Positions 609 through 51,684 of a DNA stretch of 64,000 nt are shown piece by piece; the first letter of the stretch is position 1; each line of letters opens with the position of its first letter. Below the pieces are notes generated by a model, which ran no database searches, was not told the DNA's origin, and saw nothing but the letters and a program-made list of their open reading frames with translations. Source of the stretch: Escherichia phage vB_EcoP_PAS59. The translations under genes were made by a program, and so were the position numbers. The DNA is taken from the sequence record OQ921332.1; one strand, 5' to 3'.

Positions 609-636
609 TTGACATGTTTTTCCTTTAATGTATAGT
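609..636 (+). promoter_or_regulatory. Promoter: TTGACA-16 nt-TATAGT; also contains the 9-mer TAATGTATA (626-634)
   Basis: Consensus -35 at 609-614, -10 at 631-636, about 135 nt upstream of the first gene. Confidence 0.6.
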
Positions 637-770
637 TGCAATCGTAGTTTGAATTATCGTTAATGAAGCAGTGATGTAAAGTAGTTAGCGGTGATAGTGA
701 GCAGTGAAGGTTGATCAGCCTAAGTAACTACACACGACAAACAATCTTTCATTTATCAGGAGTAGTAATA

Positions 771-1271
771 ATGGCTATCAAAGCAATGCAGGCTATCAAT
801 CTAGCGTCCTATGCACTGGTTGCAGCTATCGGTGTTAGTGCTATCGCTACCAATGTTCAGGCTAAAGATGATAAAGTGTTATCCGCTCCTACAGGTCTGC
901 AATCCTTTGTTAGCACGTTTAAGAATGCTCCTGATATGACTTGTCGTGACGTTGGTAGTGATGGTAATGATGCCTTCTGGCGTGTACACTTCAATGAAGT
1001 CACTACCGCTAATGTGCGTGTCACTCTTACCCCATTGGGCGAGAAATCTGGCACTCAGTCAGTCATTAAATTGAAACGTGCTGATAGTGATCATGACATG
1101 GTTACTTATTCTCTATATCAGAAGGTTGAGAAAGAAAAATTACAGTTTGTAACTAATCTCGTTAGTTATGGTGATGTGAGTGAAACCGTACTCGCTACTA
1201 CTGCATATCATGACGGTGTAGCAGTTTATACAACCTTTATTAACTTTGCTAATTGTGATATTGTTCAATGA
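771..1271 (+). CDS. Exported early protein (signal peptide), unknown function
   Basis: Frame of ORF 711..1271; ATG 771 follows AGGAG (758-762); N-terminus MAIKAMQAINLASYALVAAIGVSAIATNVQA/KD looks like a Sec signal with an AxA site. Confidence 0.75.
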   Translation: MAIKAMQAINLASYALVAAIGVSAIATNVQAKDDKVLSAPTGLQSFVSTFKNAPDMTCRDVGSDGNDAFWRVHFNEVTTANVRVTLTPLGEKSGTQSVIKLKRADSDHDMVTYSLYQKVEKEKLQFVTNLVSYGDVSETVLATTAYHDGVAVYTTFINFANCDIVQ

Positions 1272-1364
1272 ATATGGTTTACCCTTTCTTGTTCTTTCTT
1301 GCAATCTTATTGTATGTTCGTAGTTGTATAGCCCTTGTTTCTCAAGCTATTAAGGATTAAACTA

Positions 1365-1613
1365 ATGAATGAGTCATACGCAACCGTAATAAATGCCTAT
1401 ATGTGCATTCAGCATGGTGATTTGGTTATCAGTGGTAAATATGGCCTTGTACTGATTCCTATCCGTGCTTTGGCTTCCTTGTCTTCAGCACATGCACGCA
1501 TGACTATTGCCCGATTGTCCGGCCTTGATCCGATGACCGCTAGCGAGTATCGCGATTTGCTGGTTAAGTCTGGTTTATCGCTGGAAGAACTGTTAACCGT
1601 CGAGGATAATTAA
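1365..1613 (+). CDS. Hypothetical early protein
   Basis: ORF 1335..1613; internal ATG 1365 after TAAGGA. Confidence 0.55.
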   Translation: MNESYATVINAYMCIQHGDLVISGKYGLVLIPIRALASLSSAHARMTIARLSGLDPMTASEYRDLLVKSGLSLEELLTVEDN

Positions 1614-1615
1614 CG

Positions 1616-1888
1616 ATGGAAACTATTGCCATTATTGAAACACATAATTACGGCGTAGGCATTACACTGAATTATGACGCTATGGCTGACGTTGGTAATT
1701 TGTTATTGATCACCCCTAGCGATATGAAAATTATTGCCTTCACTGGTATTATGCTTATTGGTGCGGATTATCTTGAGCTGGCCCAATTCTTTGCCCGTAA
1801 TGGCCTACTATTGGACGTTGACGAGGTGCAAGCCATTTGTGAAACCTTTGATGACTATCTAGATAAGGTTGTAAGTGGTGATTCATAA
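1616..1888 (+). CDS. Hypothetical early protein
   Basis: ORF abuts the previous stop (coupled). Confidence 0.6.
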   Translation: METIAIIETHNYGVGITLNYDAMADVGNLLLITPSDMKIIAFTGIMLIGADYLELAQFFARNGLLLDVDEVQAICETFDDYLDKVVSGDS

Positions 1889-1980
1889 ATACTTCTTGCA
1901 TTGCCTGTTAGTAATTAGTATCATGTTATTTATCTATGACGTGATTTCTTATGTTGTTCGTTCCTTCTAAGGCTTGAATT

Positions 1981-2307
1981 ATGAAAATTAAATTAGCTGT
2001 ATGTGCTGCCTTGTTCGCTGTTTCTTCCGTGTCACATGCTGCCGTATTCAACGAGGCCAGTTTAGATGGTCTGCAATGCACCTATCTAATGGAAAACTAC
2101 GACACTGGCAAGAAGTCCAGCAAGGCAATATTGATTGACCTGAACGACTACGACAGCAAGATAGTTGATAGTAAGTCTGCAATGCTGGTCAATCAGACAA
2201 CAGGCAAGCAAATCACCATTGATCACATGATGCGATCTAGCATGACGTTGTTCGATGAGTCGATGAATGAAATAGCATCAGGTAACGGCACTTGCACCAA
2301 TCCGTAA
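1981..2307 (+). CDS. Exported early protein (signal peptide), unknown function
   Basis: MKIKLAVCAALFAVSSVSHA/AV signal peptide; followed by a terminator. Confidence 0.75.
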   Translation: MKIKLAVCAALFAVSSVSHAAVFNEASLDGLQCTYLMENYDTGKKSSKAILIDLNDYDSKIVDSKSAMLVNQTTGKQITIDHMMRSSMTLFDESMNEIASGNGTCTNP

Positions 2308-2327
2308 CTAATCCGTAAGACTCTCTA

Positions 2328-2352
2328 AGCGCCCTTTTGAGGCGCTTTTTTC
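2328..2352 (+). terminator. Rho-independent terminator
   Basis: GCGCC-CTTTTGA-GGCGC followed by TTTTTTC. Confidence 0.8.
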
Positions 2353-2513
2353 ATTTCTAAGGTGATTGCACATCTTGCCCCTGTTTAGCTCGTTAGGATG
2401 CTTCCTATGTGCCTAGATTTCGATTATAGGGCTTGTTTTCTTCCTCCCTTGATGTTATTCGTGTGTGCGTTCCTTTATGCCTAAAAGAAAGTGAAATTAT
2501 TTTAGAAAAAGAC

Positions 2514-2541
2514 TTGCAACGGTTTTAGGATAGTGTATATT
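2514..2541 (+). promoter_or_regulatory. Promoter P0: TTGCAA-16 nt-TATATT
   Basis: Sigma70-like hexamers; also TAGTGTATA (2531-2539), one mismatch from the TAATGTATA 9-mer. Confidence 0.5.
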
Positions 2542-2581
2542 GAATCTTGTCAGGACGTGATGCAGTAAGTTACCTCCTGAT

Positions 2582-2612
2582 AGGCTAGATTCTTAGCCTT
2601 GCTCTTTAATAA
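2582..2612 (+). promoter_or_regulatory. Hairpin (AGGCTA/TAGCCT) followed by boxA-like TGCTCTTTAATAA (2600-2612)
   Basis: 12/13 match to E. coli rrn boxA TGCTCTTTAACAA; hairpin-then-boxA order as in rrn leaders. Confidence 0.6.
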
Positions 2613-2666
2613 TTCGATTAGTGTATCTTGATAAACTCCCAACCATGCCATAATGAGGATTTATCA

Positions 2667-2867
2667 ATGAACGTGTATACCTTCTCAAGCAAAGACACGC
2701 AAATCACTTGCACTAGCATTAACGTTACTAACATGATTATGAGAATAGTCGGTAGTACATTACAGCAGGCAAAAGAGATGGTAGCCGATGCCGATAAAGG
2801 CAAAGCTATTGCGGTGTTATCGCTGGTAAGTACGGATAAAGATTTAACCTTTAAACGTATGAACTAA
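2667..2867 (+). CDS. Hypothetical early protein (66 aa)
   Basis: ORF 2628..2867; ATG 2667 after GAGGA. Confidence 0.55.
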   Translation: MNVYTFSSKDTQITCTSINVTNMIMRIVGSTLQQAKEMVADADKGKAIAVLSLVSTDKDLTFKRMN

Positions 2868-2929
2868 GGTAAGGTTAGCGGCCTTAACGGTCGCTAGTTT
2901 ATCAAGATGCATTAATCGAAAAATAGTTG

Positions 2930-2957
2930 TTGACACATCGAATCATTATGATAAGAT
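2930..2957 (+). promoter_or_regulatory. Promoter P1: TTGACA-16 nt-TAAGAT with extended -10 TG; A-tract upstream
   Basis: TTGACA 2930-2935; TGaTAAGAT 2949-2957. Confidence 0.7.
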
Positions 2958-2989
2958 GTTCACACGGTCAGCGATGACATAAAACATCC

Positions 2990-3022
2990 GGCACTTAGTG
3001 CCCCGCTCTTTAACAATTTATC
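2990..3022 (+). promoter_or_regulatory. Hairpin GGCAC-TTA-GTGCC followed by boxA CGCTCTTTAACAA (3004-3016)
   Basis: 12/13 match to rrn boxA; GCTCTTTAACAATTTATC (3005-3022) matches the E. coli rrn leader as I remember it. Confidence 0.7.
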
Positions 3023-3089
3023 GTCTTGCCCTTTCGCAAAGATTCACGCGAGATAAGGGAAGAGAATAAAAAGAAGACGATAAAAAGAG

Positions 3090-3117
3090 TTGACAAGGTG
3101 AAACGTTCTGATAGAAT
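3090..3117 (+). promoter_or_regulatory. Promoter P2: TTGACA-16 nt-TAGAAT with extended -10 TG
   Basis: TTGACA 3090-3095; TGaTAGAAT 3109-3117; A-tract upstream. Confidence 0.7.
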
Positions 3118-3140
3118 GTTCACTAAGCAGTAAGAAACAC

Positions 3141-3153
3141 CGCTCTTTAAAAA
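3141..3153 (+). promoter_or_regulatory. boxA variant CGCTCTTTAAAAA
   Basis: About 17 nt downstream of the predicted P2 start; 11/13 match to rrn boxA. Confidence 0.5.
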
Positions 3154-3256
3154 TATGAATCAGAAAGTTAAGCGCAACCGCTTACAATCTTGTTAATCCA
3201 ATGCGTGATTAACTGGTCATTCGAAAGAATAGACGAGAAAAAGATTAAAAAAGTGG

Positions 3257-3285
3257 TTGACACGCTAAACAGGATGATTCATAAT
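3257..3285 (+). promoter_or_regulatory. Promoter P3: TTGACA-17 nt-CATAAT
   Basis: TTGACA 3257-3262; CATAAT 3280-3285; A-rich upstream. Confidence 0.65.
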
Positions 3286-3338
3286 GAGCACTCACTAGAC
3301 AACTAGTGAAACGCGAAACCACGGCGAACGGTGGCGGG

Positions 3339-3379
3339 AGGTGAGAAAGCACCTCGATAGATTTACCGCTCTTTAACAA
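3339..3379 (+). promoter_or_regulatory. Hairpin AGGTG-AGAAAG-CACCT followed by boxA CGCTCTTTAACAA (3367-3379)
   Basis: 18-mer CCGCTCTTTAACAATTTA is identical to the copy at 3003-3020. Confidence 0.7.
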
Positions 3380-3439
3380 TTTAAACTTCTTCCTATATCG
3401 GTTGAACATGGCGAGCAATAATAACCATTGCAAGCTATG

Positions 3440-4185
3440 CCAGATAAAACGATGTAAGGCGCTCTAAAATATCAGAGGAAACCGCTTTATAATCCCTTAC
3501 TGGAAACGACACCACTGATAAATGAAGTTATTGAGTACATGCAAGGCTTAAGCTAATCGCCTACGGTTAAAGGGTAGCGGCGGCGGTGCTAGTAAAGTGC
3601 TACAATAATAGACGTTTATCGGGGTAGTCAAGTCCGACGAATTAACGCTCAATAGCGAGCGGCGGGAGGGGGTTAAAGAGTAGCAAATTGCTATTTAACA
3701 ATAAGGTTTAAGCGTGAGTATTTACTAAGTGAGTGTTTTGATACACATCAATAGCGATGTGAGTACATAAACATGTAGTGTAGTAAATCGTGAGAGAGAT
3801 AATCAAACGCCAAAGTATCAGGCGGTCAATGACTCTTTACCATATGCTTTCCCTTAGTAGGCGATAAGCAGGTTTAGAGAGTTGATATAAAAGGGTATCA
3901 CGAAGCGAAAGCAAAGTAGATAGTAATGCCATCGGCTAGAAATTTAGCTAATTAGAGATGGACGCGCTTGCCTTATTGTGATGATTGATCATCGCTGGCA
4001 AATCGGCTTTGTTTATAGCGATTAGTTGAATCCACCAGATGAAACATCACGGCAAGTTAGGCGGCAAGGTTAACTCCTGATAAGACCGCCTGATTTACCA
4101 CTGGTTACTAATGGTTAGTGATTAGTGTTAAGTCATAGTGACTTGAATAGCCCATAGAGGGCGGCGCATAGTGCGTTTATAATTG
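3440..4185 (+). ncRNA. Long untranslated leader or non-coding RNA (~750 nt) downstream of the promoter/boxA array
   Basis: No ORF of 60 aa or more on the + strand; internal repeats (3565-3610 vs 3671-3706); 11-nt long-range complement 3817-3827 / 4084-4094. Confidence 0.45.
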
Positions 4186-4198
4186 AAAGGTGAATATC

Positions 4199-5101
4199 AT
4201 GGCTAAAGTTTTTAATCTGGTTAACGAATCCGGCTTTAATGCACTGGCAAACAACATTCGTAGCAATAACGCGGCGATCAAACAAGATGTTTCTAACTTC
4301 CTGTTAGGGCATTTGCAGCACTTCCGCACCAACGGTAAGAAACTGGATGTATTGCAGGCGGCGGTTGATTTCTTGTTAACTGAACGTTATCGTGACTTAG
4401 ATGTGATTGCGGTTGCCATCTCTTTCTTAACTCCTATCAAATATAACACTGACGGGGCGAACGGTAAGAAGAAATGGATTAATCTGGAAGGTGAAGCGAA
4501 AGCTAAAGAAGATGCTAAACCGGAACAGGTTAAATCTAAAATGGAACAAAACCGCGCCCGCTGGTCGAATTCCTTTGAACGCTTTGCTAAAGGTGAAGAC
4601 GTGCAGGTTGATAACCCAGCATTCTACAAAGGTTGCAATGACAACGTTCCGGTAGCAAACCAGATCAACCAGAAGGTTAACGAAAACTTTAATCAGGATA
4701 TTTATGCACTGGTTGACCGTCTGGCTGCAATCCGTATTGAAGCGGCATTACTAGCAGATGAACGCAATGGCGCATCTTCTGATAACACTATCGCATTGAG
4801 TGAAGAAGTCGGCAAAGTTAAGAAAACTTTCGATTCACTCCTTAAGAAAGTGACCGCATCAACTGTATCTATCAGCGATGACTACCTGATTAATGCCTCG
4901 ACTAAAGAGCTTGAATCTCTGGACTCATACGCTGATGAAATGGAAAAAGCGATCAACGAAATGACTGAAAAATTGTCTAACCTTCGTGGTCGCATCTCAA
5001 ATGCTTCAACTATCAAAGCGAACGAGAAAGCTGCGCAGGAAGAAGAAGAAGTGTTGCGCAAAGCTGCCGAAATCATGGCAGCACGCCAACAAGCTGCATA
5101 A
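4199..5101 (+). CDS. Early protein (300 aa), C-terminal coiled-coil, unknown function
   Basis: ORF 4190..5101; ATG 4199 after AAAGGTGA; strong terminator follows. Confidence 0.8.
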   Translation: MAKVFNLVNESGFNALANNIRSNNAAIKQDVSNFLLGHLQHFRTNGKKLDVLQAAVDFLLTERYRDLDVIAVAISFLTPIKYNTDGANGKKKWINLEGEAKAKEDAKPEQVKSKMEQNRARWSNSFERFAKGEDVQVDNPAFYKGCNDNVPVANQINQKVNENFNQDIYALVDRLAAIRIEAALLADERNGASSDNTIALSEEVGKVKKTFDSLLKKVTASTVSISDDYLINASTKELESLDSYADEMEKAINEMTEKLSNLRGRISNASTIKANEKAAQEEEEVLRKAAEIMAARQQAA

Positions 5102-5119
5102 CCTATAATAAAACACATG

Positions 5120-5154
5120 AGGCGCTATTCGAAAGGGTAGCGCCTTTTTCTTTT
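5120..5154 (+). terminator. Rho-independent terminator
   Basis: GGCGCTA-N10-TAGCGCC followed by TTTTTCTTTT. Confidence 0.8.
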
Positions 5155-5208
5155 ACTAGTGCATTGATTCAGTGTGCTAATCAAAGAAACTAAAAAGAGA
5201 TAAACACC

Positions 5209-5433
5209 ATGCCAAAACTGAAAACAGAAGTTAAGATGTATCGTAACATTCTCAACAACATGACCTATCGTAAAACCGATAAATACGGAATCGAATGCAA
5301 ATGCATTCTTACTGGCAAGTGGTATCCGTCGCCGATTCAAGAACAAGCATTGATTGAAAACTCTGTTACTTACACTATCACGCAGGAAACTAAGCTAGGC
5401 CGATTCCTTCGTAAGCTGGGGTTACGCAAATGA
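5209..5433 (+). CDS. Hypothetical protein
   Basis: ORF with ATG; overlaps the next start (ATGA coupling). Confidence 0.6.
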   Translation: MPKLKTEVKMYRNILNNMTYRKTDKYGIECKCILTGKWYPSPIQEQALIENSVTYTITQETKLGRFLRKLGLRK

Positions 5434-5651
5434 TCTTAACTCAATCCCATTTGTGCCCTATCTGTAAGAAAGCACGTGCTAACAATAACCATCGCAAGTG
5501 TAGTAGAATCTTACAGCGTCGTCGTAATGATGCCGAGATGGATAAGATTCGAAAGAATCAGTATGAGCACGAAAGAAAACAAGCGGCGATTAGTGCATCT
5601 TCTGTAATGTATCGTCGTGTAAGAGCACTCCAATATAAAGAGGTTGTTTAA
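5430..5651 (+). CDS. Hypothetical basic protein with a CPICK...C motif
   Basis: ORF, coupled to its neighbours. Confidence 0.6.
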   Translation: MILTQSHLCPICKKARANNNHRKCSRILQRRRNDAEMDKIRKNQYEHERKQAAISASSVMYRRVRALQYKEVV

Positions 5652-8986: not shown

Positions 8987-9291
8987 CAATTTCATCTTCA
9001 ACTCGCTGCAATCCTAATGTAGATATCCGTGCTCAAATGTCTAAGATGCCCGGTGTTACTCATTTAGAGTTCACCTACAGTCACTCGCGGTATGAACCGG
9101 GCTTTACTGTGGTAATAAAATCTCCGTGGTTAACAATGACATTGTTCTCGGATGAAGTTGAGAAGGCGGTGAATGGTATTAAGTCAGGCGGACTTAAACT
9201 TTTATCCACTGAACTGGCTGATGAGTTCATGCCTCTTATCCGTAAAGGTGTGGCTAAAATGAACAAAATGATGGAGGCTGCAAAGCAATGA
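8983..9291 (+). CDS. Hypothetical protein
   Basis: ORF, ATGA-coupled. Confidence 0.6.
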   Translation: MTISSSTRCNPNVDIRAQMSKMPGVTHLEFTYSHSRYEPGFTVVIKSPWLTMTLFSDEVEKAVNGIKSGGLKLLSTELADEFMPLIRKGVAKMNKMMEAAKQ

Positions 9292-10109: not shown

Positions 10110-10185
10110 GCACCCTTAGCTCAATGGACAGAGCAGCGACCTTCTAAGTCGTTGGTTACAGGTTCGAATCCTGTAGGGTGCACCA
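10110..10185 (+). tRNA. tRNA-Arg (anticodon UCU), CCA encoded
   Basis: Acceptor stem GCACCCT/AGGGTGC, anticodon stem GCGAC/GTCGT, loop CTTCTAA, T-arm GGTTCGAATCC, 3' ACCA. Confidence 0.9.
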
Positions 10186-23520: not shown

Positions 23521-23763
23521 ATGTTGTCTATCGAAGATTTGATCAGCCGTGGAATGACCGAAGAAAAAGAGCCTCTGATTGTAGGCTCTCGTAAAGCTAT
23601 CAACCAACTCTGTGAAGAGTTCGGTATCACAAATAAGAGAATGATTGGTAATCAGTTCTCTGCAATCATCACCTTCCTCAAACGAGGTGATAAATATTCA
23701 ATGGAAAGTGCTGAGCGTATCATCGCAATTGCACAAGCAGATAAGGGAGTAACAAGTCTGTGA
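23521..23763 (+). CDS. Hypothetical protein
   Basis: ORF after AAAGGAA. Confidence 0.6.
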   Translation: MLSIEDLISRGMTEEKEPLIVGSRKAINQLCEEFGITNKRMIGNQFSAIITFLKRGDKYSMESAERIIAIAQADKGVTSL

Positions 23764-24443: not shown

Positions 24444-24636
24444 CAGGCAGAAGTTAAGAAAGCTTGAATCTGACTACTTAAAGATGCGGTGGAAGATTAA
24501 TCGCTATGAAAAGTTTGTCAGTATGCTCACACCTGATAAGCACTCTGAAGAGTTTATTCACAGAACAAAGCAAACCTTGCAGGGTTTTCGAAACTTGCAA
24601 GATGACGTGTGGGAAGAAATACGATCGTTTTATTAA
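24430..24636 (+). CDS. Hypothetical protein (68 aa)
   Basis: Internal ATG of ORF 24334..24636 after GAGAAGG. Confidence 0.5.
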   Translation: MTVTDRQKLRKLESDYLKMRWKINRYEKFVSMLTPDKHSEEFIHRTKQTLQGFRNLQDDVWEEIRSFY

Positions 24637-24671
24637 GAAGATTGCTCAAGGAATTCCAAGGAGGATAGAGC

Positions 24672-26462
24672 ATGTCAAAGATCATTTTGGGAGACACAGG
24701 CTGTAAAGAGTGCATCTCTCATGGTCGTGATAAGACCCATAATCACATGATTCTCTTCCGAAATGAAGAGTCCGGTGAGGAGTGGGGTTCATGTAACAGA
24801 TGTGGTGCGTATGAAATCTTCGAGAAAGGAACGACGCCCACTCCTAATGAAAAGAAAGAGCTGTCCCCTGAAGAACTTCGAGAAGTCTTAGACGATTGCT
24901 TAGAGCTTCCTCAGGGAGAGTTGACTCGTCGCTTAATCCCTAAAGCTGTGTCTGAACGCTATGGATGCCGTATTGGTTTAAGTCAAACAGACGGTCAAAC
25001 TCCTGACAGCTACTTCTTCCCTCGTGAACGTGATGGGAATATTGTTGGATATGAAGTAAAACTTCTAGACAGCAAGAAATTCTATTATGTAGGTAATGTG
25101 AAAGAAGCCGACTTATTTGGTATGGCTCAAGCACAACGTGGTGACGTATACAACAAGAAACTCTTCATCTTTGAAGATCCTCTCTCTTGTATGTCTGGGT
25201 TCCACGTACTTACCGCGTTTACAAACGCAACTAACATCAAACCTGCTTGCGTCTCTCTTCCGTTCGGTGCAGGTTCAATCTCTTCTGTCTTATCAAGAAA
25301 CCGTGATTTTATTAATGGTTTCGAGGAGATTGTACTCTGCATGGACAATGATGATGCAGGTGAGATTGCTTTAACTAAGGGTCGTTCTCTGTACCCGCAT
25401 GTTAAGTTTTCAAGGATTCCAAAAGGTACGTTCACTTATAACGGACAAGAAAAGGAAATCAAAGATGCAAACGACATGTTACTGGCAGGGAGAGGTCAAG
25501 AGCTTTTCAATAATCTTAAGTATTCAGCTAAGCGGGAATCTCCTGCTGGAGCTGTTACAGTTTTTGATTGCCTCGAAGATGCTCTGAAGAAAGCGGAATG
25601 GGGTATTCCTTATCCGTGGAAAACTCTTAACGACATGACCTTTGGTATTCGTTGGGGAGAGATGGTTGCAATCGGCGGTGGTGTTGGTTCAGGTAAAACC
25701 TTAATCGCACACGAACTGGTAGCATGGCTTTGCCTTGAGCATGGTTTTAATGGTGGTGGCTTCTTCTTGGAAGAGAAGGTAGGCATGTCTGTTAAGAACA
25801 TTGCTGGTAAGTCTGCATCTGTTCCATTTCACCGACCAGATGTTGAGTATGAAGAAAGCCAGCTACGAGATGAAGCACTTCGATACGCTGATAAGTTTTT
25901 CTTATACGACAACTTTGGACAGAATGAGTGGGAAGACATTAAGCAGTGTATTCGCTTTTGGGTAGTTGAGAATCAATGTAAGTTTATCATCCTTGATAAC
26001 ATCACTGCATTGGTATCTCACTTAACTCCATCCGAAGTGAATACAGAAATCAGTAAGATTGCTTCAGAGCTTGCTGGTATGTGTAAGGAATTAGACTTCA
26101 CTGCTTTTGTGTTATCTCACTTGAATGCTCCGGCGGGCGGTGCCCCTCACGAAGAAGGTGGTCAGGTTAAAGAAGTACAGTTTACTGGCTCACGTTCATT
26201 AATGCGCTGGTGTCAATGTATTATCGGTTTCGAACGTAATAAACAAGCGGATGGGTTAGGTAAAAACTTGTCAATCATACGTCTGCTCAAAGAGCGTAAC
26301 TATGGACAGACGGGGGTTTGCTATACCAAATATATTAACGAAACAGGTCGTCTTGTAGAACGAGAAGATCATGAAGTTGATGAAGATAATCCGTTTACAG
26401 TCACCAACGGAGAAGATGCAGCTTCCTTACTCTCACAAGAAGGGGAGGCGCGTCCGTGGTAA
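24672..26462 (+). CDS. Bifunctional DNA primase/helicase (T7 gp4-like)
   Basis: N-terminal Cys4 Zn finger, TOPRIM (FEDPLS...MDNDDAG), Walker [10 protein letters not shown], Walker B IILDNI. Confidence 0.9.
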
Positions 26463-29431: not shown

Positions 29432-29455
29432 TTGGTAGTAGATATGATAACTCTC

Positions 29456-29464
29456 AAATGTATA
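29456..29464 (+). promoter_or_regulatory. AAATGTATA, one mismatch from the TAATGTATA 9-mer
   Basis: Intergenic, 38 nt upstream of the ATG at 29502. Confidence 0.35.
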
Positions 29465-33994: not shown

Positions 33995-34003
33995 TAATGT
34001 ATA
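33995..34003 (+). promoter_or_regulatory. TAATGTATA 9-mer (candidate phage-sigma promoter element)
   Basis: Perfect copy, intergenic, 33 nt upstream of 34036. Confidence 0.5.
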
Positions 34004-34035: not shown

Positions 34036-34353
34036 ATGATGACCGATAAGGCGAAAAGAGATTATGCACAAGAACGAAGAACTGCAATCAAACGTGGGGA
34101 GACAGGTGTTGGTAGCAAGAGCGGAGATGCTCAGCGCCACCGTGCACGTCGCATCGTTGAAAAACGCGATGGAAAAGCTGCTGTCCGAGGTAAAGATGTT
34201 GGACACAAACGATCAATCAAGTCGGGAGGTTCTAATGCGTCAAGTAACTTACGTGTTGAATCAGTCTCTCGAAATCGCTCGAACGGCGGCAAAAGTGGAG
34301 ATCGTGCTGGAAAATCAGCAGGCGGTCGCAAAGGAGCTTTAAGCTCAAGCTAA
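34036..34353 (+). CDS. Small, very basic protein with a degenerate HNH-like segment
   Basis: GKDVGHKRSIKSGGSNASSNLRVESVSRNRSNGG; own promoter motif and terminator. Confidence 0.55.
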   Translation: MMTDKAKRDYAQERRTAIKRGETGVGSKSGDAQRHRARRIVEKRDGKAAVRGKDVGHKRSIKSGGSNASSNLRVESVSRNRSNGGKSGDRAGKSAGGRKGALSSS

Positions 34354-35290: not shown

Positions 35291-36982
35291 ATGGATAACC
35301 CTGATAAGTTACCTTTCATAACGGAGATGACAGTCGCTGATATAATCTCAAAACAGGCGAAGCATGGAGTCAACTTCAACAGAAGAAACGCTCGGTGGTT
35401 TGTTCATCTTCTCAAAGAGATTATTGTCAATATTGATAAAGAACTGATTCCTCTCCTCCCCAAAATGCGGGTGGATGGTTCAACTTATTCTAAACCTTTT
35501 AAGAAATCAGGTGCTTTACAGAAGTGGCCTCAGCTCTATTGCGATAGGGTTGGTCTTAAAAGAGAAGATATCGGTGGGGCGTTTACTTGCGTTGAGTATG
35601 TAGATTTTGACCCATCAAAAGATGCACGTATTAAAGAAGCCTTGATGGATGAAGGTTTTATACCTCCAGAGTGGAATTATTCTAAGAAACCTTGGAATAC
35701 TTTTGAAATTCGTAAAGCTATGAAGAAGTATGGTACATACTCTGCATGGTATTCTGCTTGGATTCGAGGTAACGCTAAAGAGAAACAGACAGCAGAGATG
35801 ATAGATGCTGATATCCGAAGGTTTTTGGATAAGCACTTCCGTTATCACACTGTCAATTATATGAAAGCCTATGTCAGCGGTTTAGGTCTTAACCCTAACA
35901 GGAAGAAGCCTGTAACCTTTGATGAAATCAAAAAAGCTTTGGCTACATCAAACAAGTGGCCTACAGCCCCTACAAACCTTGAGGAGACTCTTGAAGAGGG
36001 GCTTGGGGGTGAACTAGGGGGTGTAGGAAGTTTGCTTAAGAGACGCGTTGTAGCGGCTCACAGGCTAGGTTTGATTAGCGGGCTTATCGACAAGGAACGT
36101 AAAGATGGTAAACTGTCCGCCGAAGCTAATAGCTGCGCTACTCCGACATTTCGTTTTAAACATCGCATTGTTGTTAATATTCCTTCTCGCGGTTTGTTTG
36201 GTCACGAGTGCCGCAGTCTTTTTCAATCTGACTATTCCTCAGACGATAGTCATAACCATCCTTTCATCATTACCAACCATATCCCTGATGGGTGTTACGT
36301 ACGAAAGGGTACTAACATTATCTACGAAATGGGAAAACCGGGCAAGAAAGACAAACCAATAGGTGCTTATAAATTTTATGTACCTGCTGGTCGTGAAGTC
36401 TTCTTAGGTTATGATGGCTCTGGTCTTGAGCTGAGGATGCTTGCTCATTACCTTATCAAAGAGTGTCGTGAGATGCTCGCTGAAGCAGAGCGGGAAAACA
36501 ACCCAGCTAAGAAACGGGAAGCTGAACGCGGTCTAGCTTCTGCTGTTATGTACAGAGATATTCTTTTAGAAGGGGATATTCACTCACATAACCAAAAACT
36601 TGCTGGCCTTCCTACTCGTGATAATGCTAAAACGTTTATCTACGCATTCAACTACGGAGCTGGTGACGCTAAGTTAGGAAGCATCGTAGGTGGTGGCTCT
36701 GATGAAGGGGCTGTCATGAGGGCAAGATTCTTAGCAGAGAATCCTTGTATTGCAATTCTTATTGAACGTATGACAGAGAAAGCACAAAGTGGATACATCT
36801 ACGGTGTGGATGGACGTCGTATTACAATGAGGAGGGATGCAACTGGAAAGGTTATGGTTCATAAAGCCTTAAACACCCTCTTACAGAGCGCTGGGGCGAT
36901 TGTTATGAAGTATGCAATGCTATTCCTTAATAAATGGATTGAGCGTGATGGTGTTCGTTGTGCGAAGGTTATTGACATGCAT
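35291..36982 (+). CDS. Family A DNA polymerase, polymerase domain, exon 1
   Basis: T7 gp5-like; motif A region GYDGSGLELR, motif B NAKTFIYAFNYGAG; the frame breaks inside motif C after ...VIDMH. Confidence 0.85.
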
Positions 36983-40569: not shown

Positions 40570-40699
40570 ACCACCTGTTGTTTATAAAGATAGTCTCAGA
40601 GATCAATACAGTAAGATGTTAAAAGATCAAGCTGAATCTAACTTACTTTATCAGCGAATAGTAGAAGAATCTAGATTAAAAGGAATGATGGAGTGGTAA
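40532..40699 (+). CDS. Small protein (55 aa)
   Basis: Internal ATG of ORF 40448..40699 after AGGAAG. Confidence 0.4.
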   Translation: MKEEKNKVSSLFKPPVVYKDSLRDQYSKMLKDQAESNLLYQRIVEESRLKGMMEW

Positions 40700-40813
40700 C
40701 TTATGTTCTTTACTTCTTAGCTTTCTTAGGAATAATCTTTTTATCTATTATTATTGAATTTGGTTTAAGTAAGTTAGTTAACTATTTAGGTAGTAAGTAA
40801 TTAATATTCTTTT

Positions 40814-40884
40814 AAATAGAGAATCAAAGTCCCTAGGAGTCCCCACAACCTAAATCAAGGATTCCTTAATTCTCTATTTTTATC
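40814..40884 (+). terminator. Large inverted repeat AAATAGAGAAT...ATTCTCTATTT followed by TTTAT (terminator-like)
   Basis: 11-bp arms at 40814-40824 and 40868-40878. Confidence 0.4.
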
Positions 40885-40974
40885 TCGCAGGTGTCTCCTG
40901 CCCTTCGGTACTTGCAAGGGTTACAATGATTGCCCAATATACAAGCCTGCAATAGCTTTACTAGCTATACCATA

Positions 40975-40983
40975 TATACATTA
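40975..40983 (-). promoter_or_regulatory. TAATGTATA 9-mer on the minus strand (leftward, antisense to the + genes)
   Basis: The plus strand reads TATACATTA. Confidence 0.45.
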
Positions 40984-41045
40984 CTACTTGTCATTATCTA
41001 CTACCAAAAAGGTTATAGTATAATAGAACCTTATCTGTATAGGTG

Positions 41046-41054
41046 TAATGTATA
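41046..41054 (+). promoter_or_regulatory. TAATGTATA 9-mer upstream of the SSB gene
   Basis: Perfect copy 60 nt upstream of the ATG at 41114. Confidence 0.55.
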
Positions 41055-41113
41055 TAGTATACAAACCGCTCAAAGAGAGCAACAATCTTAAATCTATATA
41101 AGGAAATATTAAT

Positions 41114-41854
41114 ATGTCTATGATCCCTGAACTGTCTGTATCCCGTAAATCCAACTACGATGTAATCCCTGATGGTGAGTACGAAGCACGTATTGTTCGT
41201 GTTGTAGGTTTGGGTGTTCACAATCGTGACCCTTGGATTGACCCTAAGACCAAAGCAGTTACCCCTAAGAACCCAGCTTTCCGTATGGACTTAGCTTTTG
41301 AGCTGATTGGCGTAGATGCAACAGGGACTGATAATGAAGGCAAACCTCTGGACCCTCGTCCTGCTTGCCAGTTTAAATCTTTCGATGTAAACCCACGAGC
41401 TAAGAACTCTGGTATTCTAAATCTGATTAAAATGATCGACCCAAGTGTTCAAGCACTGAAAGGTGATTTGGGTTGGTTTAAAGATATGCTGTTAGGTCAG
41501 CCTGTTAACATTCTGGTTAACTCTTACACCAATAAAGCTGGTGAGAAGAAAAACTCCATTAAAAGCATCACTCCAATCCCGACTAAATATCGTGACGCGG
41601 TAGGTGCTCCTCGTAGTGAGTTGATCTTCTTCGAACCGTATGCTGAGACTGACGCTAACTTAGCTGCTTATCAAGCAATCTTCCCATTCCAACGTAACCT
41701 CTTGACTCAAGCTAACGATGCTAAGAATATCCCTCTGGCTGGTCGTGAAGTTACTAAAGCTTCTGATACTGAACAGAAAGATGCTACTCCAAGCATCCCT
41801 ACCATTAATGAAGAGCCGCAATCAACCTTTGAAGAGGATGATTCGCCTTTCTAA
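41114..41854 (+). CDS. Single-stranded DNA-binding protein (T7 gp2.5-like class)
   Basis: Acidic C-terminal tail ...FEEDDSPF, comparable to the SSB/gp2.5 tails; own promoter motif and terminator; replication-gene context. Confidence 0.6.
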   Translation: MSMIPELSVSRKSNYDVIPDGEYEARIVRVVGLGVHNRDPWIDPKTKAVTPKNPAFRMDLAFELIGVDATGTDNEGKPLDPRPACQFKSFDVNPRAKNSGILNLIKMIDPSVQALKGDLGWFKDMLLGQPVNILVNSYTNKAGEKKNSIKSITPIPTKYRDAVGAPRSELIFFEPYAETDANLAAYQAIFPFQRNLLTQANDAKNIPLAGREVTKASDTEQKDATPSIPTINEEPQSTFEEDDSPF

Positions 41855-43195: not shown

Positions 43196-43846
43196 ATGAA
43201 GAAAAAGACAACACCCACACGCTATCGTATTCATGGCATACCTATTAAATACTACCCAACCTTCGATGAATTCTATCGAGAGAATTGGAAAGTTGTGCAT
43301 AAGTATTTTATGTACGACATTAAAGATTATCACGAAGCAGAGGATGTTGCTCAGGAAGTGTTACTGAACTCTTGGCGTTTTGTATTTGCAAAGCAAGAAG
43401 AACTGCTGCTTACCGATGAAAAAGATATTGAACACATGACTTATCGTGTGAAGAATATCATCTGGTCGATTCGTTCTAATCGACAGACAGTTGGAGACAG
43501 ACGTATCTATTCTATTCCAGAGGCTGATATGTTTAGACCTCCCGAGATGAATTCATGGGAAAGTCCTTTAGAGATTGCTATGGATAAGCATGATTCTACT
43601 GGAGACCCATTCTTGGAATCTAGAATCTTTTTCTTCTTCCAAGACCTAAGTGATATTATGGAAAACCGCAAGATGGCAAGTATGTTCTCAATGCTCTTCC
43701 TCGGTATTCCTCATGATCACATCCAACAAGAGCTGGGAATTTCACACGGAACCTTCTATCGCCGTTATTCGGAGAATCGTGATCTGTATGAAGCGGTAGT
43801 AGAGAAGCACTTTGATAAAGAAGATCTTCAAGGGATGATTCAATAA
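43196..43846 (+). CDS. Phage-encoded sigma70-family (ECF-like) sigma factor
   Basis: Region 2-like [18 protein letters not shown]; C-terminal region 4 [23 protein letters not shown]. Confidence 0.6.
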
Positions 43847-46609: not shown

Positions 46610-46617
46610 GAGGTCTT

Positions 46618-47121
46618 ATGAATGAAGAGAAGTGGACCCATTTTCTATACTCCTCTGAATCTCCTTCTGGATTTCTCTGGAGGAGTAAACCAGCCCCTTT
46701 TGTAAAAATAGGAAGCGTGGTAGGTACGAAAAACAAGAAAGGTTATTGGGAAATCAACACCAAAAACTCTGGAAGAATTAAAGCTCATCGGTTGGTTTGG
46801 GAGTACCATAATGGACCTATCCCAGAAGGGTTTTTGGTAGACCACATAGATAATAACCTAGACAACAATACAATAGAAAATCTTAGACTTTGTAATGCGA
46901 AGGAAAGTGCTAGGAATACTAGAGGTTGGAGCAGTAAAAGAGATTCTTTACCTAAAGGTATTCATGACAACTCTCATGGAGGAAAGAATCCGGGATACTA
47001 CCAAGCTCGAATTTACATATCAGGTAAATCTTACACGAAATCTTCATACGATATCTTATATTTACACAGATGGCTTAAGAGTAAAAGAGAGGAACATCAT
47101 GGAGAGTTTAAAAAAGATTGA
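46618..47121 (+). mobile_element. HNH (HNH_3) homing endonuclease gene
   Basis: KAHRLVWEYHNGPIPEGFLVDHIDNNLDNNTIENLRL. Confidence 0.75.
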
Positions 47122-47154
47122 TGAATTCGATGGATTCTAACATCTAGAAATAAA

Positions 47155-47190
47155 GAAGCCCCCTTCCTTTTCAGGTTGGGGGCTTTTCTC
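47155..47190. terminator. Bidirectional terminator between the convergent + and - gene blocks
   Basis: AGCCCCC-N14-GGGGGCT with T-runs on both strands. Confidence 0.75.
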
Positions 47191-47193
47191 GTT

Positions 47194-50100
47194 TTACTCC
47201 TTAGCTCGAACTCTAACACGGAGTTTAGCTTGACGCTTACTTCTCTCCAACTTGTCAGACAGAGAACCACGTTTGACTTTCAACTCTCCCTCGTCATTAT
47301 ACTTCTCCAAGAACTGTAAATACTCTTGTCGAGTAGTTGTCTTGTAAGAAGGAATCTTAGCATTAGGATTCGCTTCAATCACACGTCTAATCTTAGCTAC
47401 ATCATCCCTCCCTAAAAGTTTCCCTTTAGCTTGTTCTGCTGTAGAACCAAAGATCTTCTCAAGTGCTCGAGATTTGTTACCACCTGCCGAAGCAGCACCA
47501 AGTTTCGCAATAGCAGAATAATCATCAGCACTAAACCAAGCCACTGGATTATCTCCATAACGTTTCTTGTTCTCAGCAGCAGTCTGTAGAGCACGCACAA
47601 ATCGACGGTTGTTACCAGCCTTATCTGCACCATGAACCCTATCTAGAACCTCTGCAACACTCGCCAACTCCTGCAAGTCTTTCCCTTCAATAAAAGCTTT
47701 CTCTGCTTTGTTAGCAAAGTCGTCTTCCTGCTTCTTAATACTTTCAAGAATATCAGAGTTAGCCTGAGATCTTTCATCCTCAGGTAGAGCCGAACGAATC
47801 TTCTCCATTTCTTTCTCTTCATCTAAAAGTTTCTTAAAGTCAGAATCAACTTTACGAGCATCTTCGATAGCTTTTGATGTTTCTGCATCAAGGTCAGAAG
47901 TTTTCCCATCTGCATCACCAGTTGCCTTAGCAATCTCTCTTTCGATTGGAGTAGCTGTTTCATACTTCTTAACAAACTTCTCTACGTCAGATTCGATACG
48001 AGCACGAGCATTCTGATGTTCCACTGGAGTCATAGGTTTCTCTAACAAAGCATACCGATTGTCCATATAAGAACCAGCATACGCTTCAGCATCCTCCCTA
48101 GAAACCCCCTTCTCTTCCAAAGTGTTGACTAAACGCTTATGAATGTCGTCACGTTGACGTTGAACTGCCATTAGGTCATTCTCTCGTTCCTGAGCTTCTT
48201 TCAGAGCCTTATCTCTCTTCACTCTAGAATCAATATCAAACCTACGGTTCATTTCCTCAGCCTGTTCATACATCCTATTCCACTTAGCCTCACGAGCATC
48301 TTCCTCTGCTTCGGTCAAACGACGTTTGCGATCGAGGTAATCACTCTCAGCGTTGTGAATACGTTCAATAATACTACGGAAACGCTCTGGTGGTACTGGA
48401 GAGTTTTTATCATGGTGAGCAGCAAGCTGCTTCAAAGTACGACCTTCCTGAGCTTCTCTGACACTTTCAGGCAATTCTTTGAACATCTTCTCCATCTCGG
48501 ACTTCTGAGCCGCTATAGCTTCCAAGGACTGCTTTTCAGCTTCCATAGCTGCCTTGGCATCATTACGAGCCTTAGCTCTGTTACGGAGCGTCTCAAGACG
48601 TTCTTGACGTGCTTGCAAGTGTTTAGCCGCTGCTTCGTATTGAGAGTTCTTGTTAGCCTTGTTGAACATGTTAACTTCTCGGTTATATGTATTGATAAAC
48701 CCATCCCACACATCCTTCATTTGACCAACTTCCAAAGCCTCAACCCTTCCAGCTTTCTCTGAAGATTTAAACTTACTCTCCACGAAGTCTTCCATAATCC
48801 TACGCATAGCATCTTTCTGAGCAGGACGTAACGGTTCTGCATCAAGCAGTGTACCAATTTCATCCTGAAGCTCTTTCTTCTGATCTACCAGTTTAGGAGC
48901 ATCTTTCTTGTCAAAAGCTTTATTCTCTTCCAGAGCCTCTCGATAGAGACGGTCAAATTCATCATCTCTCTGTTTCTGATATAAACGCTCAGCTCTTCGT
49001 TTCAGTGAGTCTAGACTTGTGACGTTTCCACCCAAACCCTTCTCTTCAGCACGTAAAGCCTTAGTAGCAATATCAGAAGGCAACCCACGCTCTTTTACCC
49101 AATCAGCAAAAGAAGAACGAACATGTTGAGACTTAGCAGAAGCAATACCTTGCTGTGAAGCTAGCTGGTTTCTAGCCATCTCTTCATGACGCTGTGTGTT
49201 GTTTGCTTGGTCTTCCTGACGGATACGACGCATAAGCTCTTTAGGGTCTCCTTTATAAGAAAGGAAGTTTTCCGCAGTAGCTTTGGCTTTAGCAGCAGCC
49301 GAATACAAAGAACGAGCAAATCGGTCAGCACGATCTTTTGTTGCCTGACGGGCAGCAGTTGACATAGAAGCCAGACGCTCTACACCGAGTGATGGTTTAA
49401 CAGGCTCAGGAGCCTTCTCAGGAGCTTTGGGCGCACGAGCAGGTAATGGCTCAGGTTTCTCTTGAGGTTCCTCTACGGTCTTCTCAGGAGCTTCTTTAGC
49501 ACGTTCTGCTTCCTCTGCTTCTTGACGTTTCTTCGCTTCTGCTACAGCTCTGCGCTGAGCTACTAGTTCTCTTGCTGTCAGTGCTTCTTGCTGTGGTTCA
49601 GGTTCTGGAGTAGTGCTTTCTTGAGCCTGAGCAGCTTCCGCTTCTTGACGTCTAAGTTCTGCTTGTTGTAGAGCACGTCTTTGAGCAACTAAATCTCTTG
49701 CCGTAAGAGGTGTTTCAGTAGGAGCTGGAGAGGAAGGAATTTCTTCCGTCACAGTAGTAGCAGAAGGCTCCTCACGAACCGGTTCGGAAGGGGCATCATT
49801 TTGGGTACGGAATTTGATGTCTTCTGTGGTTGGTTCTTCTTCCATTTTTGCTCTTGCTTCTTCGGCTTGAGTTCTAGCTCGTTGTACTTCTAAATCCGCT
49901 CTAGCCAAAGAACGAATAGCTTCACTATTAGCTGACTGTTGTTTCTCTCGTTGAGCACGAGCACGATCAGAAGTGAAACGATTAAGTACATACTTAGCCG
50001 CACCAAGAGGATTCTTAACCAAGACAGGAGCTGGAGCTTCACGGAAACCATCATCAGTCAGAGAGGTCCAACCGCGATCTTGGTTGCTCATGAACTTAGC

Positions 50101-51639
50101 CGTGTTATTTAAAGTGAAAGCATCTTGAATAGGATTAAACCCTTCAGGCATACCTTTCAGTTTCTTCAACCCACCAATAGCCTTCTTCATCTCTGGAGAA
50201 ACATTATCAGAGAGCTTCTGCAACTGAGTAGCTTTCTCAATGAAGTTATTTAGATCTTCGCCATCACGAGCTTTGAAACGATTTGCTTCGCTGTAGAAGG
50301 TCTTGTAGGCATCAATAAAGTCACGGTCAGCTTGTGTACGGTTCTTAATGTCAATAGCACTACCAGTAAAGTCACCACTCGCTCGGAGAGCTACTAACTC
50401 TCGGTCTAGGTTGTCTAGAACATCAGTAAGAGCCTTGGTGTTGTCTTTAGTGTAGTCAGCCATCGCATCTTTCATTGCTACAGCTTGTTTCTGGTTATAC
50501 TCATTGTCAGCAAAAGCTTTACCTTGAGTCTTCTTAGGAGAAGCTAAAGGATTGAGACCGGGAACGTTAGAACTGTCTTTCTGAACAGTAGCAGCCTTCT
50601 CTGCACGACTTTGGTCTGTATTTAAGATGCGCTGAACAGCAGGAGAATCCATAGCAACTGCATCAGTGATACGGAAACCATTTTCATCTAGAAGATTTAA
50701 AGCAGAAGCAGCATTAGCATTCTCAGCTTTAGAGTAGGCTTCACGAAGTTCATCAGCATTAGCAGCTTTACGAATAGCTTCATCTTCAGCAGCAATATCA
50801 GTTTTAACATGCTCAGGAGTACGGTCAAATACTTGAGGGCTAGAACGACTTATCAATCCATGAACCCCACCAATTGCCCCACCATAAGCAGCACCAAGTG
50901 CACCCTCTTCAATAGCCCCTTCTAAGACATTAGCGAGAGTAGTATCATCCCCATATTTGTTCTGAGCTTCAGCAGCACCTACAATAGCACCACCCTTAGC
51001 ACCCGCAACTGCGTTGGAAGCTACGCTCTGTCCTACACGACCAAGAGTCGTAGAAGCTGTACCAGTCATACCCGGAAGGATTTTCTGAGCAGCGTAGTTA
51101 GCACCACCAACAAGAGCAGCATCCAGAACTGACTTGTCTTCGTCTTCTTTTGGAGTTTGGTCAGCATATGCACGACCTGTTTCACGAGCCGCAATAACAG
51201 CAGCAGCAACAGCAGGGTTTGCAACTGTCAAACCAATATCAGCAGCAACTCCAGCATACTGACCAGCTGTTTTACCAAAACCATCTTCTATTTTAGATAA
51301 GCGCTCTTCTAACAATTGCTTGGAGTTCTCTTGAATACGCTTACCGTAGCTTGTTTCTGAACCAGTTAAGTTTTCACCAATCTCTACCAGCCCACCTATA
51401 CCCCTAGCAGCACTAGCTGCAATGTTAGCACCACCAGATTGAAGAGCGTTAGACACACCTTGAGCAAACTCCCCAATAGCACCTCGTTCTTCTTGTTGTG
51501 GTTGCTCTTGTGGTTGAGTCTCAGGAATAGTGCCCCCTGCTGCCTTGTATTGTTCTCTCATTTGAGCCTGTTGCTCTGGAGAGGCATTCAGATACGCAGG
51601 AGCTTTGGAAGCTTCTTCCCACGATTTTAAATTAGCCAT
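47194..51639 (-). CDS. Very large virion-associated protein (1481 aa), probably an internal/ejection protein
   Basis: Gly/Ala-rich N-terminal third, long coiled-coils, internal repeat LTAR[DE]LVAQRRA x2; late-strand context; AAGGAG RBS. Confidence 0.8.
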   Translation of the reverse strand: MANLKSWEEASKAPAYLNASPEQQAQMREQYKAAGGTIPETQPQEQPQQEERGAIGEFAQGVSNALQSGGANIAASAARGIGGLVEIGENLTGSETSYGKRIQENSKQLLEERLSKIEDGFGKTAGQYAGVAADIGLTVANPAVAAAVIAARETGRAYADQTPKEDEDKSVLDAALVGGANYAAQKILPGMTGTASTTLGRVGQSVASNAVAGAKGGAIVGAAEAQNKYGDDTTLANVLEGAIEEGALGAAYGGAIGGVHGLISRSSPQVFDRTPEHVKTDIAAEDEAIRKAANADELREAYSKAENANAASALNLLDENGFRITDAVAMDSPAVQRILNTDQSRAEKAATVQKDSSNVPGLNPLASPKKTQGKAFADNEYNQKQAVAMKDAMADYTKDNTKALTDVLDNLDRELVALRASGDFTGSAIDIKNRTQADRDFIDAYKTFYSEANRFKARDGEDLNNFIEKATQLQKLSDNVSPEMKKAIGGLKKLKGMPEGFNPIQDAFTLNNTAKFMSNQDRGWTSLTDDGFREAPAPVLVKNPLGAAKYVLNRFTSDRARAQREKQQSANSEAIRSLARADLEVQRARTQAEEARAKMEEEPTTEDIKFRTQNDAPSEPVREEPSATTVTEEIPSSPAPTETPLTARDLVAQRRALQQAELRRQEAEAAQAQESTTPEPEPQQEALTARELVAQRRAVAEAKKRQEAEEAERAKEAPEKTVEEPQEKPEPLPARAPKAPEKAPEPVKPSLGVERLASMSTAARQATKDRADRFARSLYSAAAKAKATAENFLSYKGDPKELMRRIRQEDQANNTQRHEEMARNQLASQQGIASAKSQHVRSSFADWVKERGLPSDIATKALRAEEKGLGGNVTSLDSLKRRAERLYQKQRDDEFDRLYREALEENKAFDKKDAPKLVDQKKELQDEIGTLLDAEPLRPAQKDAMRRIMEDFVESKFKSSEKAGRVEALEVGQMKDVWDGFINTYNREVNMFNKANKNSQYEAAAKHLQARQERLETLRNRAKARNDAKAAMEAEKQSLEAIAAQKSEMEKMFKELPESVREAQEGRTLKQLAAHHDKNSPVPPERFRSIIERIHNAESDYLDRKRRLTEAEEDAREAKWNRMYEQAEEMNRRFDIDSRVKRDKALKEAQERENDLMAVQRQRDDIHKRLVNTLEEKGVSREDAEAYAGSYMDNRYALLEKPMTPVEHQNARARIESDVEKFVKKYETATPIEREIAKATGDADGKTSDLDAETSKAIEDARKVDSDFKKLLDEEKEMEKIRSALPEDERSQANSDILESIKKQEDDFANKAEKAFIEGKDLQELASVAEVLDRVHGADKAGNNRRFVRALQTAAENKKRYGDNPVAWFSADDYSAIAKLGAASAGGNKSRALEKIFGSTAEQAKGKLLGRDDVAKIRRVIEANPNAKIPSYKTTTRQEYLQFLEKYNDEGELKVKRGSLSDKLERSKRQAKLRVRVRAKE

Positions 51640-51675
51640 AACGTCTCCTTATAAATAAAAATGTCCTACCTCCTA

Positions 51676-51684
51676 TATACATTA
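51676..51684 (-). promoter_or_regulatory. TAATGTATA 9-mer on the minus strand upstream of the 1481-aa gene
   Basis: The plus strand reads TATACATTA; 37 nt upstream of the start at 51639. Confidence 0.55.

Follow-up and report, generated by a model that had tools for sequence, protein, structure and literature searches.

Which RNA polymerase reads a 9-nt word repeated between the genes of a phage that encodes its own sigma factor, and at which of the copies? The question is raised by the 9-mer TAATGTATA in 64,000 nt of DNA of Escherichia phage vB_EcoP_PAS59 (sequence record OQ921332.1); this whole stretch is called the window below. A sequence-only reading of the window had taken the copies of the 9-mer for promoters of the phage sigma factor, giving an element close to tAATGTAtA as the one recognised in phage phiEco32. 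Our analysis makes it highly probable that the 9-mer serves as the −10-like element at promoters for Escherichia coli RNA polymerase carrying the phage sigma factor (a gp36 orthologue), assisted by a gp79 orthologue. The genuine sites of this system would be P68, P58, P40, P26 and a divergent site that we call Pdiv, with the exact copy at position 626 outside it. Sequences, synteny, conservation and the identical protein contact residues are direct observations; judged by homology, the phage-sigma holoenzyme would transcribe these sites at middle and late times.

Occurrence of the 9-mer in the window

An exhaustive two-strand search of the window returned five exact copies of TAATGTATA, at 626-634 (+), 33995-34003 (+), 40975-40983 (−), 41046-41054 (+) and 51676-51684 (−). 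These are the five positions, all intergenic, that the sequence-only reading had listed. In 100 dinucleotide-preserving shuffles of the window 0.63 copies were expected, the maximum was four and none of the shuffles reached five. The two one-mismatch copies named in that reading exist as well (TAGTGTATA at 2531 and AAATGTATA at 29456). The search thus bears out the proposed enrichment for the exact copies, which exceed 100/100 shuffles, and fails to do so for exact and one-mismatch copies taken together (20 matches in the window against 19.1 expected).

Exact copies precede gene starts by 33 nt (start at 34036), 60 nt (41114) and 37 nt (51639). Four exact copies had been placed 33-60 nt upstream of a gene start; we find three, the copy at 40975 (−) pointing at no open reading frame (ORF) of at least 30 aa. 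The distance from the end of the 626 copy to the ATG at 771 was measured as 137 nt, in agreement with the earlier figure of ∼135 nt.

Could the repeats be a matter of chance or composition, that is, AT-rich intergenic DNA resembling sigma70 −10 boxes? The 9-mer contains TATA, the copies at 626 and 2531 overlap sigma70 −10 regions, the one-mismatch class is at chance, and a raw count of five is unremarkable for a 9-mer chosen post hoc (342 distinct 9-mers reach at least five copies in the window). Against this, TAATGTATA is the sole 9-mer with at least five copies that has all of them in intergenic sequence (5/5; the best unrelated 9-mer has 3/7), in addition to the count that no shuffle reached. 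The 8-mer AATGTATA has six of its nine copies in intergenic sequence, which makes up 10.5% of the window (P = 8.5e-5), and the three intragenic copies, used as a control (11141−, 38175+, 53242−), are not kept in relatives. The probability left to chance is vanishingly small: it is already refuted by the perfect conservation of the 9-mer at four syntenic sites across diverged flanks (see below), and direct biochemical and structural evidence is available for phiEco32.

The phiEco32 system and its counterparts in the window

According to two papers (PMC4331800, PMC8948821), phiEco32 has six promoters for the gp36 holoenzyme, the late P6, P13 and P26 and the middle P40, P58 and P68; their consensus is tAATGTAtA, with transcription starting 6-8 nt downstream. 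This promoter class was mapped in 2012 (Pavlova et al.; cited in PMC4331800, PMC8948821); the results of the early phiEco32 work are taken here from PMC4281155, PMC4331800, PMC8948821 and PMC12276001. A tabulation made in 2022 of the six sites for six phiEco32-subgroup genomes lists TAATGTAgA, TAATGTATA (four times) and aAATGTATA. The literature on phiEco32 promoters thus confirms the consensus named in the sequence-only reading. The accompanying description of a single element has become outdated. The 2025 cryo-electron microscopy structure of P68 bound by the holoenzyme with gp36 and gp79 shows A-14, A-13, T-12 and G-11 being read by the N-terminal domain of the sigma factor, and in addition G-37 and A-34, in the −35 region, by its C-terminal domain (PMC12276001). 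Mutating the contacts at −14 to −11, −37 and −34 reduces or abolishes activity; in particular, mutation of the G at −11, which is contacted by gp36 E79 and H80, lowers activity, and mutation of −34A abolishes P68 activity (PMC12276001).

The window comes from a phiEco32-group podophage whose closest relatives are SU7 and Bas86 (94-96% identity), with phiEco32 itself at ∼80%; its orientation is reversed relative to the phiEco32 record. Both protein partners are encoded:

43196-43846, + strand: phage sigma factor, gp36 orthologue (PDB 9m7y chain F, E = 2.8e-117; PHROG 1740, RNA polymerase sigma factor)
23521-23763, + strand: gp79 orthologue (tblastn, 75% identity; PDB 9m7y chain G, E = 1.5e-35)

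The sigma-like gene that the sequence-only reading had pointed out is therefore real and is the gp36 orthologue, as its match to chain F indicates. The gp36 residues that contact DNA and clamp (E79, H80, Y83, R84, W90, S91, S94, N95, Y186 and R187) are all identical in the window sigma. In phiEco32, gp79 inhibits the sigma70 holoenzyme and activates the gp36 holoenzyme.

Four conserved sites orthologous to mapped promoters

Four sites in the window are syntenic orthologues of phiEco32 promoters and correspond one-to-one with those of phiEco32 and NC-B:

29456-29464, + strand: P68 orthologue (middle), AAATGTATA, matched by sequence and synteny to phiEco32 46862(−); −35 block TTGGTAGTAGATA at 29432-29444; downstream gene start 29502
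33995-34003, + strand: P58 orthologue (middle), exact in all relatives examined; downstream gene start 34036
41046-41054, + strand: P40 orthologue (middle), exact in 13/13 sequences (eight distinct); downstream gene start 41114
51676-51684, − strand: P26 orthologue (late), matched by synteny and sequence; downstream gene (1481 aa) starts at 51639

With AATGTA placed at −14 to −9, tAATGTAtA is exact at 33995, 40975 (−), 41046 and 51676 (−), and 29456 has AAATGTATA. Conservation was computed across the relatives that could be aligned. Pairwise identity of the 9-mer is 1.00 at P68, P58, P40 and P26 and 0.98 at Pdiv, and the flanks of P58 and P40 fall to 0.42-0.72. At P58 upstream identity is 0.42-0.52, and of the bases from −65 to −17 only G(−36) and A(−34) never vary; at P40 the flanks have 0.51-0.72 identity and −34A is again invariant. 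At P68 the −35 region is conserved as well (0.96), and the window keeps the AAATGTATA variant of phiEco32.

At −34, an A is present at all five conserved sites, Pdiv included, and in 35 of the 38 distinct (T/A)AATGTATA contexts collected from 21 sources; the contexts that lack it include the 626 copy and one chance intragenic copy. The base at −37 varies, being G at P68, P58 and Pdiv, A at P26 and T at P40.

The best-supported account follows the known phiEco32 scheme. The sigma70 holoenzyme would read the early genes, in part from a promoter at 609-636, and gp79 and the phage sigma would then be made. The gp79 orthologue would displace sigma70 region 4 and stabilise the C-terminal domain of the phage sigma. 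The N-terminal domain of the latter would read A-14, A-13, T-12 and G-11 of AATGTA and melt the DNA from −11, with the C-terminal domain, held by gp79, contacting the −35 region near −37 and −34. Initiation by the new holoenzyme would take place 6-8 nt past the 9-mer, in front of the middle operons (29456, 33995, 41046) and of the late operon (51676−), and very probably also at 40975 (−), from where transcription would run away from P40 into non-coding DNA that is conserved.

The genes downstream of each promoter had no Pfam or PDB match and fell only into PHROGs families of unknown function. The product of the first gene after P40 (41114-41854, +; 246 aa), likewise with no Pfam or PDB match, ends in an acidic C-terminal tail, ...STFEEDDSPF, which may be of the kind found at the C-terminus of single-stranded-DNA-binding proteins from phages and bacteria.

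The P40 9-mer overlaps a palindrome, TGTATAtagTATACA, at 41049-41063 (+). Its phiEco32 counterpart is ATGTATAcTATACAT, which gives a one-mismatch copy of the 9-mer on the opposite strand. A TGTA...TACA inverted repeat lies just downstream of several other gp36 promoters too.

The P26 9-mer sits at the top of a terminator-like hairpin (51663-51697, −) with 15 pairs, five of them G-C, and the tail ATTTTTATTT; part of the 9-mer forms the loop. Its stem contains G+C and leads into a run of T on the strand that is transcribed, so that the hairpin has the features of an intrinsic terminator. Read by eye, phiEco32 P26 has the same layout, with stem changes that preserve pairing. Transcripts reading through from the upstream late genes would form this hairpin; those started at P26 begin in its 3′ arm and would not.

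A probable look-alike at 626 and the one-mismatch copy at 2531

The remaining exact copy and one of the one-mismatch copies lie in sigma70-type promoters of the early region and are not syntenic with mapped gp36 promoters:

609-636, + strand: early sigma70 promoter TTGACA-16-TATAGT (11/12), the best sigma70 match of the early region; holds the fifth exact copy, 626-634
2514-2541, + strand: weaker sigma70-like promoter TTGCAA-16-TATATT; contains TAGTGTATA at 2531-2539

In the alignment both sigma70 hexamers at 609-636 are conserved in seven relatives, and the SU7 record annotates a promoter at the counterpart. The counterpart of the 9-mer itself is TAATATATA in SU7, Bas86, 101114BS3, NC-B, TH34 and SU10 and TATTATATA in phiEco32, so that the −11 G is unique to the window and A is found in 7/7 relatives examined. 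The sequence at 2531 is also present in NC-B and matches none of the six mapped gp36 promoters.

It had been proposed that the 626 copy is recognised by both sigma factors. In its full form this would mean that all five exact copies are functional phage-sigma promoters, with sigma70 using the 626 site early and the phage sigma using it at later times. The 9-mer is indeed exact there and lies over the early region's best sigma70 promoter, and the authors of the SU10 study speculated that both holoenzymes read some promoters. We regard this reading as improbable. The −11 G, the base contacted by gp36 E79 and H80, is A in all seven relatives, the closest ones included; the copy has G at −34 (and A at −37), where every conserved site has the −34A whose mutation abolishes P68 activity (PMC12276001); none of the relatives has a gp36 promoter mapped here; and the sigma70 hexamers are the conserved part of the site. 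We conclude from the comparison of relatives that the 626 copy is most likely an early host-type promoter in which a single A-to-G change completes the 9-mer by chance, the change being taken as genome-specific because the relatives have A there. The proposal that the motif copies are phage-sigma promoters is thus supported for the four sites syntenic with P26, P40, P58 and P68, and not for the sigma70 sites at 626 and 2531.

Three points weigh against this assignment of the sites. The −35 rule derived from P68 is not uniform, since P26 and P40 have A and T at −37. In the present phage, the A-to-G change at 626 might still confer a degree of gp36 activity. Furthermore, the functional statements made for the window are all transferred from phiEco32, whose sigma factor is ∼80% identical, and hold to the extent that this analogy does.

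A probable divergent promoter back-to-back with P40

Neither the published lists of six promoters nor the annotation of SU7 includes the fifth conserved site:

40975-40983, − strand: Pdiv, back-to-back with P40, 62 bp between the two 9-mers; predicted +1 at about 40968

No ORF of at least 30 aa lies downstream of it. An exact syntenic counterpart is present in phiEco32 at 36704(+). The −35 block of Pdiv, TTGGTAGTAGATA at 40995-41007 (−39 to −27), is identical over 13 nt to that of P68 and stands in the same register. For a broader comparison 21 distinct versions of Pdiv were drawn from phage records, IMG/VR and metagenomes (an IMG/VR search with the gene-40 protein gave five loci, and short stretches from a phage collection were added). 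The 9-mer is exact in 20 of the 21 versions and TGGTAGTA is invariant, with the spacer between them at 0.43 identity. Pdiv is likely to be an active gp36 promoter, an estimate that rests on the presence of both validated recognition elements and on this clear conservation footprint.

The exceptional version comes from a metagenome contig (L021, ERZ1034915.75), in which Pdiv reads TAATATATA, with the −11 G changed to A, and the downstream block is intact. The variant suggests that at least one lineage can do without Pdiv, unless the contig sequence contains an error.

The middle P68 and Pdiv have TTGGTAGTAGATA in common at −39 to −27; the late P26 and P13 have TAAGACCTA in common at exactly −38 to −30 (51699-51707, −, in the window; ∼9078-9086 in phiEco32). 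The two sequences may be class-specific upstream elements. The NC-B P13 site is TAATGTATT, with TAAGACC upstream.

A 53-aa ORF with a TTG start (40930-41091, +) spans both back-to-back promoters; the corresponding stretches in two of the collected loci are 24484-24678 (L003) and 85-264 (L034). It is annotated as a hypothetical protein in some relatives (4E8, EK5) and not in phiEco32 or SU7. Lying over regulatory DNA, it is probably an annotation artefact.

The conserved non-coding block downstream of Pdiv

What would Pdiv transcribe? The sequence immediately downstream is a candidate RNA gene:

40815-40968, − strand: candidate non-coding RNA from Pdiv, a near-invariant block of ∼155 nt with a structure predicted by RNAalifold

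The block region was found in 98/98 related phage records, at 90-99% identity in almost all of them, and ∼110 nt are essentially invariant in genomes that are ∼80% identical overall. As a coding sequence the block was considered and rejected, its longest ORF being 28 aa with a TTG start and disrupted in an alternative version of the middle segment. So little variation suggests that a protein recognises the sequence or that it pairs with a partner which is itself conserved. Our tentative reading is that Pdiv is an active phage-sigma promoter making a discrete structured non-coding RNA of ∼155 nt in this phage (∼180 nt in relatives whose middle segment is the alternative one). All sequenced phages of the phiEco32 group would have this RNA and make it at middle or late times; we put the reading forward as a real possibility. 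Possible roles for such an RNA are control of read-through from the upstream operon into the cluster that extends from gene 40 to the sigma gene, and priming or marking of a replication origin.

The RNAalifold prediction comprises a 5′ hairpin (40950-40968) that begins at the predicted +1, a middle stem, a GCAGG/CCUGC hairpin (40887-40901) and a long 3′ hairpin (40815-40878). Pairing in the 5′ hairpin is kept through base changes: UA is replaced by GC in three sequences and CG by UA or AU in five, and G.U pairs occur in seven. Other stems of the block hold invariant G.U pairs. The RNA made in the Pdiv direction is predicted to be more stable than its complement in 21/21 versions (mean −47.1 versus −40.0 kcal/mol), and the G.U pairs, which become A.C mismatches on the other strand, are consistent with the better folding of the Pdiv strand. 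In the block alignment 99.5% of the cells of the predicted pairs are paired, a share that drops to 34-54% on sliding the partners. By formal measures the evidence for covariation is modest. The covariation score is 0.063 versus 0.028 in shuffles (0/500 reach it), and only two pairs have double changes, a number that 163 of the 500 shuffles reach.

The competing explanation is that 40975 (−) is not a working promoter of an RNA gene at all: the block would be conserved for another reason, for instance as intrinsic terminator and 3′ end of the + strand operon upstream of it, or as a DNA element (a replication origin is one example), with the divergent 9-mer incidental or causing no more than transcriptional interference. 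Several observations fit this better than a simple RNA gene. No minus-strand terminator for the block RNA was found, the long hairpin being followed by UUUAAAAG on the − strand, so that the RNA is left with no evident 3′ end; on the + strand the same hairpin is followed by TTTTTATCT, a good terminator tail. A block that is mostly invariant offers no covariation beyond the two double-change pairs. The loss of the −11 G in L021 likewise counts against a simple RNA gene. From the + strand TTTTTATCT tail we consider that the long hairpin probably also terminates the upstream operon.

Even so, we hold this competing explanation to be less likely than not. The 9-mer and the P68-type −35 block stand at the correct spacing in 20 of the 21 versions, on either side of a poorly conserved spacer. 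A hairpin starts exactly at the predicted +1 of Pdiv, with compensatory changes and with G.U pairs on this strand only; invariant G.U pairs in the other stems and the better folding of the Pdiv strand in every version point the same way. Finally, ∼110 invariant nt in genomes of ∼80% identity are not explained by a plain terminator.

Searches for known counterparts of the candidate RNA were negative. Rfam 15 contains no family for the block, giving only chance-level hits in 40650-41120 (E >2), and in the window as a whole only a tRNA gene (10110-10182) passes its gathering score. Comparison of the block with E. coli genomes gave no similarity, and thus no sign of host mimicry or of a long antisense target. 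There is no second copy of the block within the window. A literature search for non-coding or antisense RNA of phiEco32-group phages returned nothing relevant.

The middle segment of the block exists in two unrelated versions. The type of 5′ hairpin, the middle segment and the indel type of the 3′ hairpin combine independently among phages, which points to recombination within this short region.

On the + strand, convergent with Pdiv, a 35-aa hydrophobic peptide ORF (40693-40800, +; VTYVLYFLAFLGIIFLSIIIEFGLSKLVNYLGSK) stops immediately ahead of the long hairpin. It is annotated in SU7, MN05 and phiEco32 (gene 41) and is absent beside the block in ECBP2, Paul and Bas94. In the par locus of plasmid pAD1, RNA I and RNA II are convergent RNAs with a common bidirectional terminator. 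The layout here is similar in that the candidate Pdiv RNA would converge on a + strand operon ending in a small peptide gene, with overlap at a common hairpin. The two cases differ in that the peptide gene is absent beside the block in several relatives and the block is universal. The resemblance to a type I toxin-antitoxin pair is offered as a lead only.

Relation to known systems

The system in the window agrees with that of phiEco32 in the 9-mer, the sigma contact residues, the presence of gp79 and the positions of P26, P40, P58 and P68; at P68 the AAATGTATA variant and the −35 block agree as well. It differs in that the phages are ∼80% identical and the window alone has the look-alike at 626. 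PhiEco32 also carries the divergent site (36704+), which is unlisted among its published promoters. In Salmonella phage 7-11 a distant phage-encoded sigma factor (gp47) directs host RNA polymerase to late promoters at similar genome positions (PMC8948821). An extension of the analysis to the 7-11 and GAP52 phages was rejected, the sigma factor being too distant and the motif a different, experimentally defined one. There is a further likeness to AsiA/MotA of phage T4, where a small phage protein displaces or remodels host sigma region 4 and redirects the polymerase to phage promoters with an unusual upstream element (PMC12276001). T4, however, keeps sigma70 and adds MotA, whereas in the phiEco32 type a separate phage sigma takes the place of sigma70 and has its C-terminal domain stabilised by gp79 (PMC12276001).

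For the most part, then, a promoter class already known has been correctly found again in a further phage of the group, the copy at 626 being the one false positive. What is new is only the unlisted Pdiv together with the conserved RNA-like block that it faces. An exact match to the consensus proved insufficient, and it is −34A and conservation that separate real sites from look-alikes such as 626. Pdiv would be a seventh, previously unlisted conserved gp36-type site having both structurally validated recognition elements. The block is a concrete target in RNA from infections by phiEco32-group phages; if the tentative reading is true, its RNA would be the first non-coding RNA assigned to the phiEco32 group and to the regulon of a phage-encoded sigma factor. 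Several phiEco32-group phages are under study for therapy, and a complete transcription map has some practical use.

Other features of the early region

Promoter annotations in the 4E8 record are generic predictions, many of them within genes, and were not used. The tRNA gene at 10110-10182 (+; Rfam RF00005, 73 bits) lies among the early genes, and the early genes of phiEco32 likewise carry an annotated tRNA-Arg. A cluster of strong sigma70-type promoters occupies 2900-3300 (+), with TTGACA-16-TAAGAT at 2930, TTGACA-16-TAGAAT at 3090 and TTGACA-17-CATAAT at 3257. The cluster lies in or beside the non-coding gaps 2868-3025 and 3307-4189 and matches the three strong early promoters described for the early-gene spacer of phiEco32 and SU10.

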